Positions 9,203 to 62,276 of a DNA stretch of 64,000 nt are shown piece after piece. Under the pieces are notes generated by a model. That model was not told the origin of the DNA, made no database searches, and worked only from the letters and a program-made list of their open reading frames with translations. The stretch is from contig JAZRAH010000088.1 in NCBI GenBank assembly GCA_045634505.1, positions 6,474 to 70,473 on the forward strand, read 5' to 3'. Source of the DNA: Elusimicrobiaceae bacterium (GTDB lineage Bacteria; Elusimicrobiota; Elusimicrobia; Elusimicrobiales; Elusimicrobiaceae). The position numbers and the translations under genes are program-made. Each line of letters begins with the position of its first letter. The stretch's first letter is position 1.

Positions 9203-9982
9203 ATGCAAAACAAAAACCAACCCGTCATTGCGAGGAGCACCGCGACGAAGCAATCCACTCAAAACAAAAAAGGCTGTCATTCCCGAGTGTTTTTATCGGG
9301 AATCTACAACGCATGCCGTTGTAAAATTGAGGGAAATTCCTTATTAAATAGGTACGTGGAAGATCCCCGACAGAAACCCTCGGGGATGACCTCTTGTGTT
9401 ACAACAGCCCGCGGCTTTACCGCCCGCTCCGGTTTTACTCTTATGGAGCTGTTAGTTGTAGTTTTAATTATTGGCATTTTGGCCGCCGTGGCTGTGCCAC
9501 AATACCAAAAAGCGGTTAAAAAAGCGCGGCTAGCAGAATTTATTTCTACCATTTCTTCTATTGAAAAAGCGGTGGATGTATGGCTTTTGGAAAATGGCGG
9601 ATACCCTGAAGATTGGGTGTGGTTTACTAGTAAGGAGAACCCTTCCCTTACTTATTCTTCGCTAGATATTAAGATGTCTTGTGCGAAAGAGGATCGCTCA
9701 TCTTGTTACACCCGGCTGGGAGGATGGGATATCTATTGTATGCCTTCTTCCTGCGGTATCAATTTATATACAACTTATGATGAAAATGGAGCAACTACAA
9801 ATACTTGGTTAGATAAGGCGTTTATTTCTGTACGCAAACGCCCGTCCGATGAAAATATATGGAAAATAGAAAGTGCTACCCAAAATACAAAATTAGTTTG
9901 CCAAGTGTGGAAGGAAACTTTTGGTACGTCTCATATGCGTGCAAGTTTTAAAGAGACGTGTGCGGAATTAGGGGTAGAATAA
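9203..9982 (+). CDS. Type IV pilin-like protein 1 (PilE-type) with 77-aa leader
   Basis: [36 protein letters not shown]; Cys-containing variable C-terminus. Confidence 0.9.
   Translation: MQNKNQPVIARSTATKQSTQNKKGCHSRVFLSGIYNACRCKIEGNSLLNRYVEDPRQKPSGMTSCVTTARGFTARSGFTLMELLVVVLIIGILAAVAVPQYQKAVKKARLAEFISTISSIEKAVDVWLLENGGYPEDWVWFTSKENPSLTYSSLDIKMSCAKEDRSSCYTRLGGWDIYCMPSSCGINLYTTYDENGATTNTWLDKAFISVRKRPSDENIWKIESATQNTKLVCQVWKETFGTSHMRASFKETCAELGVE
9223..9390. repeat. CGTC-type REP half plus REP doublet inside prepilin leader 1
   Basis: CGTCATTGCGAGGAGC..GACGAAGCAATCC (9223-9256) and TGTCATTCCCGAG...CTCGGGGATGAC (9275-9390). Confidence 0.8.
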
Positions 9983-9994
9983 GCACATAAAAAT

Positions 9995-10022
9995 GCCCCG
10001 AAACAATTAGTCTCGGGGCGTT
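9995..10022. terminator. Putative terminator between pilin 1 and mscL
   Basis: GCCCCGA/TCGGGGC stem between convergent stops. Confidence 0.6.
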
Positions 10023-10037
10023 AAACTATATACAACT

Positions 10038-10499
10038 TTATTTAATTTCGCTCGTGCAGTGCGGGCAGCGGGTGGCTTCAAGGGCAATTTCGCTGCAGCA
10101 GAACGGGCACTTTTTGGTAGTGGGCGCGGCGGCCGGAGCCGGGGCCGGTTTGTTGAGTTTATTGATGGCTTTAATCAAAATGAAAATACAGAAAGCCACA
10201 ATCACAAAGCTAATAATAGCGTTTAAAAATAAACCTAAGTTAAGGGTGGTAGCACCGGCGGCTTGCGCGTCGGCCATGGTGGCAAAATTGCGGGCGCCTT
10301 CTTTGCCGGCTTTAATGACAATAAACCAGTTGGAAAAATCCACTTGGCCTAACAGTAAGCCCAAAGGCGGCATGAGTACGTCGGCCACCATAGAGTTTAC
10401 AATTTTGGTAAATGCGCCGCCAATGATGATACCAACTGCCATATCAATTACGTTGCCGCGCATGATGAATTGCTTGAATTCCTGAGCAATACCTTTCAT
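10038..10499 (-). CDS. mscL: Large-conductance mechanosensitive channel with C-terminal Zn ribbon
   Basis: EFKQFIMRGNVIDMAVGIIIGGAF; CPFC...CPHC tail. Confidence 0.96.
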   Translation of the reverse strand: MKGIAQEFKQFIMRGNVIDMAVGIIIGGAFTKIVNSMVADVLMPPLGLLLGQVDFSNWFIVIKAGKEGARNFATMADAQAAGATTLNLGLFLNAIISFVIVAFCIFILIKAINKLNKPAPAPAAAPTTKKCPFCCSEIALEATRCPHCTSEIK

Positions 10500-11213
10500 T
10501 TATTTCTCCTTTGTTACTAATTTTGCCGCCTCAAAAAGAGGCGTGTACAAATCGTTTTGGACCGGATATTGAATTTCTTTGCGGTCTGTTTTTTCTGTAA
10601 ACGTTACCGGGGCGTTGGTAACCACGCACAAGGGGCATTGTTCGTCTGCCTCTCCCATAAGAAATGCGCAGGCAGTAGCTAAACTATCCGCCACATTTAC
10701 AAGCGTAGTTTGGAGCGGTTTGCCAAAAATGTCCGGCGTGCCGCGCAAGTCTTTTACGCCCTTAAACCCTGCATACCCCACCGCGCCTGCAATTACACCC
10801 GCGCGCAGGGGCAAAATCATACTGTCTGTAATCACAATCCCTAAATGTTGCACGTGCCAATTTTGCGTTAACATTGTGCGTAATTCTTCGGCCGCGGCAT
10901 AACAGTCGGGCAATAAGATAAGCAGCCCGTTTGCATTACTTTCGTCAATCCCGGCATTGGTCATTACCATACCGTCTTTAATCGTCAGCCACGCAAGCGG
11001 CGTTTTAAGGGCCGCCGTGCTGTGCTGCTTAATGAGCGTTTCTTTTTGGGCCGTGCTTGTGTAAGGGACAGTATTATTTTTCCAAAGAGCTACCACTTTT
11101 GAGGACACGGCAAGTACGGTGTTTTCTTCCGCGTGCGTAATATGGCGCGTAATGAAGGCCGGTAAATTGTCCCCGGGTTTAAACACGGCTGTATGTACGG
11201 CGGTTACCTGCAT
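10500..11213 (-). CDS. F420-0:gamma-glutamyl ligase (CofE)-like protein
   Basis: LAVSSKVV, NAGIDESN, VITDS, D.RG.PDIFG, DSLA.A..MGEADE..P. Confidence 0.8.
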   Translation of the reverse strand: MQVTAVHTAVFKPGDNLPAFITRHITHAEENTVLAVSSKVVALWKNNTVPYTSTAQKETLIKQHSTAALKTPLAWLTIKDGMVMTNAGIDESNANGLLILLPDCYAAAEELRTMLTQNWHVQHLGIVITDSMILPLRAGVIAGAVGYAGFKGVKDLRGTPDIFGKPLQTTLVNVADSLATACAFLMGEADEQCPLCVVTNAPVTFTEKTDRKEIQYPVQNDLYTPLFEAAKLVTKEK

Positions 11214-61042: not shown

Positions 61043-61329
61043 TTGGCTGTTTGGGCGGCTTTTAGTTTTAAAATAAGTTCGTCCAAGCGGTTTAGTTCTT
61101 CCTGGCGTTTGCCGCCTTCGTTTTGGCTTTTTAAGTAGGCTTGCGCGGCAAAGTGCAAAGCGGCGTGTAAGGCTTGTTTTAAAGTGTCAATTTCGCCGTC
61201 CATTTGCATTTGCAACATGTACGCCTCCACTTGCGAGGCCAGTTCGGTTAGCTCCATGCCGCCCAGGCCGGAGTTTTCTACCTCTAAGGGAATGCGTTTG
61301 ATTTCTACTTGGACAATGTCTTTTGCCAT
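61039..61329 (-). CDS. ZapA-like cell division protein
   Basis: V.I..I.L...L..LA..V...M...DTLK.ALHAAL pattern plus coiled coil. Confidence 0.55.
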   Translation of the reverse strand: MAKDIVQVEIKRIPLEVENSGLGGMELTELASQVEAYMLQMQMDGEIDTLKQALHAALHFAAQAYLKSQNEGGKRQEELNRLDELILKLKAAQTAK

Positions 61330-61377
61330 ACCTTTATTGTACTTTATTTCCCAACACTTTTTTACTATACTATAGAT

Positions 61378-61597
61378 ACAATTTGATTTGTTTTTGAGCC
61401 GTATGTGGAATACGGGTTGCTTCGTAAGAAGTATTCAGCAAAGTCAAAAACAGCTGAACAAAGGCACACAAAGGCGACGGCTGGCGTGTGCCGAGTGTTT
61501 CCTGCATTTTTTGTGGGGGCTGCGGCTGTTATGTTTGGTTACTTTGCTGAGACCTGACAAAGCAGCCGATTTTGTTGGCTCTGAATGGATCAATTGA
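61378..61597 (+). ncRNA. Structured pilin-leader element, copy 9
   Basis: TATACT + 6 nt; barcode TCAGCAAAGT (61435-61444)/ACTTTGCTGA (61541-61550); closing GAGCC/GGCTC compensation. Confidence 0.85.
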
Positions 61598-61622
61598 ATA
61601 GATAAACTAAGGAGCAAGCAAA

Positions 61623-62276
61623 ATGACGAACAAAAAGAATGTAGTAAATGAAAGAGTAACGTATAGGTCAGGTGCAAACCTGACAATGGCCTGTAAAGGC
61701 CAGTATAATGGATGTTGGGTTAGCACCCAACCTATAAAGAATACGGTTGCGAAGGGTTTTACCCTCATTGAACTGTTGGTCGTGGTGCTTATCATTGGTA
61801 TTTTGGCGGCGGTAGCCGTGCCTCAATATCAATTTGCCGTTGAAAAATCCCGGATGGCCGAGGCCCTTGTACAATTAAATTCGCTACAAAGGGCAATAGA
61901 TTCGTATTTGTTGGAAAACGGATATCCTGAAGGTGCAGAAAGTTTCTTGGGAAACCAGACAGATGGCAATGGTAAGTTGGTTATAGATGTTACCGGCTCG
62001 CTAGATTGCACCGTAAATAATGGACAGCACTGTGCCAGCCGTGATTTTTTATATAGCTCAGTATGTGACGGTGAACATAATTTCTGTGCCTTAGAAGCGC
62101 AACGGGTATTATCCGGTTATGAATCTACGGACAGCAACACAAAATATCTGTTAACGCTTTCAAAAACGCAGGATACCTGGACTAAAACATGTTATTATAT
62201 TGAAGAAAATTATCCGCAAGGTAAAAAACTGTGTGACAGTTTACAAACCCAAGGGTGGATTAGTGAGGAGTATTAA
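61623..62276 (+). CDS. Type IV pilin-like protein 9 with 45-aa leader
   Basis: [33 protein letters not shown]-type palindrome 61664-61685 in leader. Confidence 0.9.
   Translation: MTNKKNVVNERVTYRSGANLTMACKGQYNGCWVSTQPIKNTVAKGFTLIELLVVVLIIGILAAVAVPQYQFAVEKSRMAEALVQLNSLQRAIDSYLLENGYPEGAESFLGNQTDGNGKLVIDVTGSLDCTVNNGQHCASRDFLYSSVCDGEHNFCALEAQRVLSGYESTDSNTKYLLTLSKTQDTWTKTCYYIEENYPQGKKLCDSLQTQGWISEEY

Follow-up and report, generated by a model that had tools for sequence, protein, structure and literature searches.

Introduction

The closest described counterpart of the genes considered here is reportedly found in Elusimicrobium minutum Pei191, which is said, in an account attributed to Herlemann and colleagues of 2009 (Appl Environ Microbiol 75:2841), to carry about 60 “pilE-like” genes of unexplained function. 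The present analysis concerns a stretch of 64,000 nucleotides (nt), referred to as the window, from contig JAZRAH010000088.1 of an Elusimicrobiaceae bacterium (GCA_045634505.1; host genome G000, 1.64 Mb in 101 contigs, 47% GC, completeness 98.6%, contamination 0.19%), in which nine genes for type IV pilin-like proteins lie dispersed. The two organisms share the family, a small genome, and many scattered genes with a prepilin-type N terminus, and they differ in that G000 carries about three times more copies. The leader RNA, the long in-frame leader peptides, the empty-site polymorphism, the replacement of bodies (the variable parts that follow the constant N-terminal helix), and the module swapping reported below were not found described for E. 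minutum.

Four better known systems are useful for comparison. The type IVa major pilins (PilA/PAK, PilE, and FimA of D. nodosus) share with this family the G|F...E5 signature, the hydrophobic helix, the alpha-beta roll, and the C-terminal Cys pair, and the peptidase, ATPases, platform proteins, and secretins are also present in G000. They are encoded by one or a few genes per genome, whereas G000 has 169 core genes, and their leaders are 5-7 amino acids (aa) long, against a median of 61 here. In Neisseria, pilE and pilS likewise combine a constant N terminus with a variable, disulfide-bearing C terminus and recombine their variable parts. In contrast, the G000 copies are complete, mostly equipped with the leader, and dispersed, with no single expression site, and the exchange is seen between lineages rather than within a clone. 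The pilin allele groups of Pseudomonas aeruginosa are unrelated alleles at one conserved locus. Unrelated pilins between conserved flanks are also found at the sites of units 2, 8, and 9 of the window (Table 1), although in G000 there are many such loci rather than one, and whole units may be present or absent. Finally, integron cassettes resemble the units described here in being single-gene elements present or absent between relatives, but the G000 units have no attC-like site, possess their own promoter, and are dispersed, and no integrase adjoins them in the window.

A Dispersed Family of Intact Pilin-Like Genes

The nine window genes belong to a large family of intact, constrained, pilin-fold genes arranged in autonomous units; the assembly machinery lies elsewhere in the genome, and the repertoire is turning over. 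The genes were located by a six-frame motif scan and translation, and nine open reading frames (ORFs) of the window carry G|F(T/K)L(I/M)ELLVVVLII(G/A)ILA(A/T)(V/I)A(V/L)PQYQ, the bar marking the predicted cut. All nine products pass the cut-off of NCBIfam TIGR02532 and eight pass that of Pfam N_methyl; the ninth (47426-48007, FKLIELL) has Pilin_GH as its sole Pfam match, below the cut-off. None of the named pilin equivalogs (GspG, PpdD, PilA, ComGC, and others) passes in the window pilins, their matches being confined to the first ~60 residues, and the head domains match no named NCBIfam model. The unit 8 product passes Pfam ComP_DUS (33.0 bits; cut-off 27.3). A ComP-like role as DNA receptor was considered for the family and rejected, since only one of the nine window pilins passes this model, which is too thin a basis for generalizing.

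Each of the nine is a single pilin gene among unrelated housekeeping genes: GDPD/MscL, SecA-side/CycH-like, serine hydroxymethyltransferase (SHMT), deaminase/RsmE, MiaB-like/GH3, MarC/UvrB, a response regulator, outer-membrane protein (OMP)/FtsJ, and PheS. ComEC (33041-34921) is the sole competence- or pilus-related gene within the window. An earlier note, made from the letters of the window only, had claimed nine isolated pilin genes and no pilus assembly genes other than comEC, and on both counts it was right. The density of one pilin per 7 kb is near that of the whole genome (182 in 1.64 Mb), so that the nine found here are not a matter of chance.

The 182 pilin-like ORFs come from a relaxed scan of the genome, a count which the earlier note had proposed. 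The core family, defined by at most five changes among 25 helix residues, comprises 169 of them; the other 13 are closer to ordinary pilins and have short leaders, and some of them adjoin machinery genes. The core genes lie scattered; of 105 neighboring pairs, just 8 lie within 1.5 kb. The median unit measures 968 nt from the start of the leader to the stop codon, and 169 such units therefore account for about 10% of the genome's DNA. Before the cut (-1), 146 core products have G and 23 have A; F stands at +1 in 168, and E5 is present in all 169. Every core ORF reaches a stop codon on its own contig, and no ORF of the family contains an internal stop. Genes for the assembly machinery are all outside the window: T2SSE is encoded four times (two genes of PilT size), T2SSF domains occur in two genes, and there are two secretins and one Peptidase_A24. 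Together they form two sets of secretin, ATPase, and platform genes, alongside two PilT-like ATPases and a single prepilin peptidase.

Along the first 25 codons of the core genes the residues are all but fixed and the synonymous codons are mixed; at Leu 6, for example, the six codons occur 41, 36, 30, 29, 23, and 9 times. Fixed residues with scrambled codons indicate that the helix is held by selection on the protein and not by recent duplication or homogenizing conversion. The near-invariant N-terminal helix recognized at the outset is thus a property of all 169 proteins, whereas the idea of a constant region at the DNA level has to be given up.

The bodies behave differently. Their GC content is 41.0% (34.7% at third codon positions, GC3), as compared to 44.2% (GC3 48.6%) in the helix and 48.5% (GC3 52.6%) in 674 long ORFs, and in 160 of the 169 genes the body lies below the long-ORF mean. 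The best paralogue of a body is 40% identical to it at the median and reaches at least 60% in just 14 of 169, yet 161 bodies join one network at E<1e-5. The C termini had been described as AT-richer than the flanks and barely alignable; the former applies generally, the latter only in part. The number of Cys residues per body is 4 in 92 cases, 6 in 34, 2 in 22, and 8 in 8, and it is even in 156 of the 166 bodies having any Cys. Columns C148 and C165 are invariant among 72 aligned relatives of the unit 2 product and may form a disulfide.

One of the 169 products (that of 19198-19707) was modeled with AlphaFold2, using these 72 relatives. The model (predicted local distance difference test score, pLDDT, 91.2) has a helix at 4-55 and five strands, and its head is, as modeled, a classical pilin alpha-beta roll. 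The top three Foldseek matches are FimA, PAK, and PAO1 pilins (probability 0.94-0.99; template modeling score 0.41-0.51). A profile search of the PDB returned PilA/PilE-type pilins and geopilin, with 8tum at E 1.2e-14 covering 11-149.

Promoter, Leader RNA, and Leader Peptide

A leader RNA of ~250 nt precedes most of these genes. Iterated nhmmer searches found 140 copies in the genome, and the full leader is present in 102 of the 136 core genes having enough upstream sequence and in none of the 13 other pilins. In the window it accompanies seven of nine pilins, the exceptions being the genes at 47426 and 51064. When the upstream regions of the nine were aligned, two hairpins proved conserved in the leader, followed by the start region and by an open, palindrome-rich stretch in frame with G|F. 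RNAalifold, applied to 114 distinct copies, gave 52 pairs of which 93% are canonical; with slid partners the proportion drops to 37-49%. Compensatory changes occur in 30 pairs, and the segments competing for pairing are invariant. There are four such segments, with alternate pairings 1:2, 2:3, and 3:4 followed by a U run. Judged from these pairings, the leader RNA resembles an attenuator and could adopt competing terminator and antiterminator structures. Rfam 15 at the gathering score matches one tRNA only in the window, and within 18700-19250 nothing credible was found at E up to 10.

The leader RNA also precedes non-pilin genes of signal-peptide or OMP-like type (G057:C9:28384-29610, locus L089; G000:C56 near 7649; G000:C66 near 317) and is thus not strictly tied to pilins.

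A promoter-like site is found upstream of the gene at 19039, where TTCACA and TATACT, the latter preceded by the TG of an extended -10 box, are separated by 17 nt (18762-18790). The 55 leaders for which an anchor was available share a T-rich/TATACT consensus on their upstream side. Several units, for example on other contigs, have a terminator-like hairpin immediately before the -10 box, ~60 nt upstream of the leader. The T run of this hairpin makes up the upstream part of the promoter, and the hairpin itself would shield the unit against transcription entering from outside. Downstream of the stop codon, a hairpin with a T run was read from folds in ~4 of the nine window pilins. The anatomy originally proposed, with promoter, leader RNA, and often a terminator for each gene, is borne out.

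The classical type IVa leader of about 5-7 residues is not what these genes encode. In eight of the nine window pilins a Shine-Dalgarno (SD) sequence and an in-frame ATG stand 45-77 codons upstream of the cut. In unit 7 the sole in-frame ATG (51169) leaves a 9-aa leader and has no SD. Genome-wide, SD and start could be called in 86 of 106 genes; 78 of these starts share the frame of G|F, and the leader is open in 74. The 74 open leader peptides have a median of 61 aa and a range of 4-154, with a minority of 4-12 aa. Their inserts are recurring palindromic modules, in frame and often flanked by a repeated “GFT”, and they appear as if inserted at the codons of the cleavage site. The palindromic leader peptides of the window are listed in Table 1. 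Four full-length Y1_Tnp (IS200/RAYT-type) genes are present in the genome, one of them adjoining the prepilin peptidase (G000:C23:14214-14573).

The ends of the units are unmarked. Inserted units begin with the promoter and end close to the stop codon, and no repeats mark either end. The 60 nt after the 169 stops hold no conserved position, no enriched 8-mer other than those of terminators, and no attC-like site, and neither a target duplication nor an inverted repeat was found at seven site boundaries read by eye.

Gain, Loss, and Replacement at Orthologous Sites

The nine sites were compared in four relatives, namely, G043 (flanks 88-96% identical in nucleotides) and G008, G057, and G074 (~78%), giving 36 cells. 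Clean empty sites occupy 19 cells (8 in G074, 7 in G057, 3 in G043, and 1 in G008), with gaps of 0-71 nt and, at the unit 9 site, ~208 nt. Pilins occupy 10 cells (7 in G008, 3 in G043), and the remaining 7 are rearranged, at a contig end, or hold another gene. Identity was measured for nine occupied cells. In eight of them the body is 11-27% identical to that of G000, and the first 30 residues agree at 25-29 positions.

The sites of units 1, 2, 7, and 9 are empty in G057 and G074, and that of unit 7 also in G043; at the unit 4 site the flanks are joined in G057 and G074 with 0 nt between them. None of the four relatives has a unit at the unit 5 site (gaps ~9-37 nt). Where pilins are present, the bodies are 19% (G043) and 22% (G008) identical at unit 2, 21% (G008) at unit 7, 13% (G043) and 24% (G008) at unit 8, and 11% (G043) and 21% (G008) at unit 9. 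At unit 8, G074 is empty and in G057 the leader precedes an OMP-like gene. Unit 1 has a true orthologue in G008, with a body 74% identical. The pilin of unit 3 is absent in G043, and an inversion with a 26-bp junction has one of its ends at that site. At the unit 4 site G008 has an opposite-strand pilin (27% identical), and G043 retains a 35-nt remnant of the leader at 97% identity, which argues that the unit was lost there. The empty unit 6 site consists of a like spacer of 18-19 nt in G043, G057, and G074, and this spacer is kept in G000 right after the stop codon of unit 6, from which it follows that the unit (47149-48007) was inserted in the G000 lineage. The same site in G008 holds a pilin with A|FTLIELL.

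Self-contained units that come and go, as the earlier note had supposed, are therefore what the comparison reveals: more than half of the cells are empty, unrelated bodies occupy the same sites, and one gain and one loss can be read. The contrary outcome which it had named, fixed and syntenic loci, does not describe these sites. The word “cassette”, on the other hand, cannot be retained in the integron or transposon sense, as the unit ends have no recombination site, target duplication, or terminal repeat.

Two candidates for a body moved between loci were rejected. Simple translocation does not account for the G043 body at the unit 2 site, which matches G000 elsewhere at only 53%, and a 67% relative of unit 2 in G064 is actually the orthologue of another G000 paralogue locus (C65), which G064 matches at 86% nucleotide identity. 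In addition, one contig from a public run joins 19275 to 19772 with other letters between them; it gives a weak hint that a population ~97% identical may hold a different body there.

The unit 9 site in G043 (C4:10951-12057, L079) encodes a 367-residue pilin with a Cys-rich, repeat-like tail, as compared to the 172-residue body in G000. The segment 27336-35408 is inverted in G043, the only G000-G043 inversion of the stretch, and its ends are the facing sites of units 3 and 4. In G008 the segment 39560-45243 is inverted, with the unit 5 site as its starting point. Synteny with G043 is also interrupted where unit 1 lies, and most of the breaks seen are marked by pilin units.

Module Exchange and Selection

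The whole repertoire was compared with that of G043, the closest species. The search gave 71 matches in G043, the DNA around 63 of which was used (the 8 weakest rows were left out), and 62 pilin-like ORFs were recovered, including 55 complete core genes. The best G000 match of a G043 body is at least 80% identical in 4 of 55 cases, at least 70% in 6, and at least 50% in 13. The median of 39.5% is like that of paralogues within G000. By comparison, 11 housekeeping proteins are 91-99% identical between the two species, with a pooled synonymous divergence (dS) of 0.43 and a nonsynonymous-to-synonymous ratio (dN/dS, ω) of 0.05.

Replacement affects some modules of a unit and spares others. In units 2 and 8, promoter and untranslated region (UTR) are 92% and 94% identical, respectively, to G043, and leader peptide and body are replaced; in unit 9 the UTR differs too. 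The reverse is seen at two other loci. At C67_6810, with flanks ~95% and 90-93% identical, nt 76-735 of the body are ~99% identical whereas UTR and leader peptide cannot be aligned over ~650 nt. At C57_9824, with a flank ~92% identical, similarity to the G043 locus starts with the first helix codon, everything 5' of it being unrelated; the helix matches at 80 of 90 positions and the body at 476 of 480, and none of its 90.5 synonymous sites has changed (dS 0). The exchange is modular, with breakpoints where leader RNA, leader peptide, helix, and body adjoin. Since these breakpoints fall at conserved junctions, namely, the start-codon region and the helix, the conserved DNA seems to be the site of crossover. 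Two of the four bodies conserved between G000 and G043 have a dS of 0 and 0.05, far under the background of 0.43, which suggests recent exchange between lineages.

Selection was estimated by domain, together with GC, along the lines which the earlier note had suggested; the AT-richness of the bodies is given above. In the four conserved G000-G043 pairs, pooled, ω is 0.40 in the body and 0.04 in the helix (dS 0.11 and 0.70, respectively). Unit 1 and its G008 orthologue give an ω of 0.04 for the helix and of 0.10 for the body, and close paralogues with measurable dS give body values of 0.06-0.46, synonymous sites being otherwise saturated. Most measurable pairs fall at 0.02-0.46, and one conserved G000-G043 pair is at ~1.1. 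The bodies are thus constrained, about eight times less than housekeeping genes (0.40 versus 0.05), and the selection on them is purifying but relaxed.

Distribution of the Family

A protein search found at least 6,202 homologues in the database, and most of these fall in clusters that hold 1-3 sequences; those having a name are called [quoted passage not shown] and belong to Elusimicrobiaceae. Apart from itself, the unit 2 product has its nearest relatives at 61-65% identity. First-look candidates, whose counts are a proxy and not copy numbers, amount to 32-252 in the host genus, 11-151 in four other small-genome genera (83 in G110, a sister-genus genome of 1.6 Mb in a single contig), and 6-13 in four genera with genomes of 2.2-2.9 Mb; other families of the order give 2-9 matches. 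Large counts are limited to the small-genome genera of Elusimicrobiaceae. Among 62 congeners at least 90% complete, a DNA proxy of 60-291 tracks genome size (Spearman 0.67), kin being non-independent and sizes rounded. The full leader in many copies is restricted to part of the genus.

Interpretation and Rival Explanations

The reading preferred here, with a probability of roughly 0.57, is that of a lineage-specific, hugely expanded family of working type IV pilin-like genes which place fast-changing heads on a common helix. Each unit consists, in order, of its own promoter, usually the ~250-nt leader RNA, an SD and a leader peptide of variable length ending in G/A|F, the helix with E5, and a head probably braced by disulfides. 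The prepilins would be cut by the single prepilin peptidase. Since all share one helix, they could enter the same filament or pseudopilus, and the interchangeable heads might be displayed for attachment or for escape from recognition by phage or host, roles close to the antigenic, adhesin, or phage-evasion repertoire which the earlier note had put forward. The leader RNA may gate expression, and the conserved DNA of leader and helix may act as recombination handles. New heads would arrive by exchange between lineages. Turnover of the repertoire, which is very fast, proceeds by the swapping of modules and by entire units appearing at or vanishing from intergenic sites.

Several points weigh against this reading. 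E. minutum cells reportedly bear no appendages by electron microscopy. The leader peptides of the window far exceed the classical type IVa length, and their processing is only predicted. The E-values of the Foldseek matches (0.009-0.03) fall short of what that tool counts as clear. Selection measured over whole genes gives an ω under 1 in most pairs and is not overtly positive. Turnover of the repertoire was measured against one close species, 85% complete, in which a few partners may be missing. In a first count, 32 of 145 core genes lay within 700 nt of a contig end, and some joins across repeats could be chimeric, the genomes compared being metagenome-type assemblies.

Among the rival explanations, it is rather unlikely that the proteins are not filament subunits and that the pilin signal and helix provide export and a membrane anchor for varied periplasmic or surface binding proteins, for instance, in substrate capture. 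The reported lack of appendages in E. minutum would fit such a role, as would the restriction of matches with named pilin models to the N-terminal ~60 residues and the weak matches to the model of Verru_Chthon cassette protein D (17-25 bits; cut-off 70). Large families with a prepilin-type N terminus and unknown function also occur in other phyla. Yet an E5 without exception and a helix invariant over 25 residues are better explained by packing in a filament core, and the alpha-beta roll of the modeled head, the two PilT-like ATPases, and the two secretins speak for filament subunits as well. A quite improbable explanation is that the units are mainly selfish or hitch-hiking DNA of little benefit to the cell, spread, for example, by the Y1 transposases. 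This family of enzymes inserts without target duplication, in the manner of the clean insertions seen here, and its four genes (one beside the prepilin peptidase), the in-frame palindromic modules with their “GFT” repeats, and copy proxies that follow genome size among congeners would all be in keeping with it. What it leaves unexplained is the lack of any conserved position in the 60 nt after the stop codons and the integrity of all 169 ORFs; moreover, the even Cys counts, ω below 1, and the invariant helix argue for selection on the proteins, and the paralogues are old, with saturated synonymous sites.

A fixed set of specialized minor pilins or pseudopilins, co-expressed and vertically inherited, is very unlikely. 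Purifying selection over whole genes and stable orthologues such as those of unit 1 in G008 and of the C65 locus in G064 are what it would predict, but the 19 empty cells, the unrelated bodies in eight of nine occupied ones, and the mere 4 of 55 G043 bodies that find a G000 match of at least 80% are not. Variation in the style of Neisseria, with a single expression locus rewritten from silent partial copies by gene conversion, is equally hard to credit. The constant N terminus with its variable, Cys-bearing C terminus, the exchange of bodies apart from helices, and the presence of ComEC recall that system; however, every copy is full length and dispersed rather than part of a silent array, most have the full leader, 55 leaders are preceded by the promoter consensus, and the scrambled synonymous sites of the helix exclude frequent homogenizing conversion. 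It is extremely unlikely, lastly, that part of the replacement is an artefact in which the conserved repeat of leader and helix leads metagenome bins to attach a flank to a body that is not its own. The draft state of all the genomes and the core genes near contig ends invite this suspicion, against which it can be said that repeat copies are only ~75-90% identical, that empty sites with like spacers are found independently in three genomes, and that G000 is nearly complete and almost free of contamination; the public-run contig across 19275-19772 adds a weak argument in the same direction.

The preferred reading, that of working pilin genes with a changing set of heads, could be carried further, to a self-renewing surface variation. 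The leader would then act as a gate such that one or few of ~170 heads are made at a time, new heads would be acquired by DNA uptake through the pilus and ComEC, the DNA of helix and leader would be kept partly as homology handles, and the pan-repertoire would number many thousands. As a joint claim this is unlikely. If it were true, the family would be a bacterial counterpart of the var and variant surface glycoprotein (VSG) repertoires, built of complete genes rather than silent copies. Should the preferred reading hold, about a tenth of a streamlined gut-bacterial genome would be a rapidly exchanged library of pilus heads, and these Elusimicrobiaceae would offer a tractable model of surface variation in non-pathogenic gut bacteria.

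Predictions can now be made about what the “pilE-like” genes do: heads that differ between strains, one leader gating the units, and one filament core into which all heads fit. A protein segment fixed by selection can double as a breakpoint for module swapping and chromosome rearrangement. Repeats of this kind cause assemblies to fragment and make metagenome bins seem richer in “unique” genes than they are. An expansion of such genes is already reported for E. minutum, and the modular turnover appears to be new; no publication was found that describes how nearly completely sister species differ in their repertoires, nor one on the clean empty sites, the boundaries of the modules, or the shared leader.

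Coordinates of the Units and Other Genes of the Window

Table 1: Pilin units of the window (positions in nt of the 64,000-nt stretch; pal., palindromic leader peptide).
Unit	Extent	Strand	Leader RNA	Start and leader peptide	F codon	Stop	Pal.	Remarks
1	8898-9982	+	8928-9180	SD + ATG 9203, 77 aa	9434	9982	9203-9433	
2	18761-19710	+	18791-19041	ATG 19039, 54 aa	19201	19710	19039-19197	promoter-like 18762-18790
3	26367-27308	+	26392-26657	ATG 26655, 51 aa	26808	27308	26655-26804	
4	35413-36381	-	36317-36077	ATG 36066, 56 aa	35898	35413	36066-35902	
5	38323-39274	+	38364-38586	ATG 38612, 55 aa	38777	39274	38612-38773	
6	47149-48007	+	no canonical leader RNA	ATG 47426	47585	48007		FKLIELL variant
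7	50661-51642	+	truncated		51196	51642		gene at 51064
8	56360-57597	+	56663-56922	ATG 56920, 61 aa	57103	57597	56920-57099	
9	61331-62276	+	61372-61625	ATG 61623, 45 aa	61758	62276		

Three other regions of the window deserve mention. The minus-strand ORF at 22450-25986 (1178 aa) has no Pfam match and is much more diverged than its neighbors; it is ~71% identical in nucleotides in G008, and part of it has no long match in G057 and G074. A cluster for cell-wall recycling occupies 39559-44477 on the minus strand and comprises GH3 (NagZ-like), AnmK, a MurQ-like SIS protein, and a transporter of the major facilitator superfamily (MFS). The AnmK and MurQ-like ORFs overlap by ~250 nt as longest-ORF calls. 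At 28676-29743 a homologue of deoxyhypusine synthase (Pfam DS, E 4e-93) is encoded in this bacterial host.

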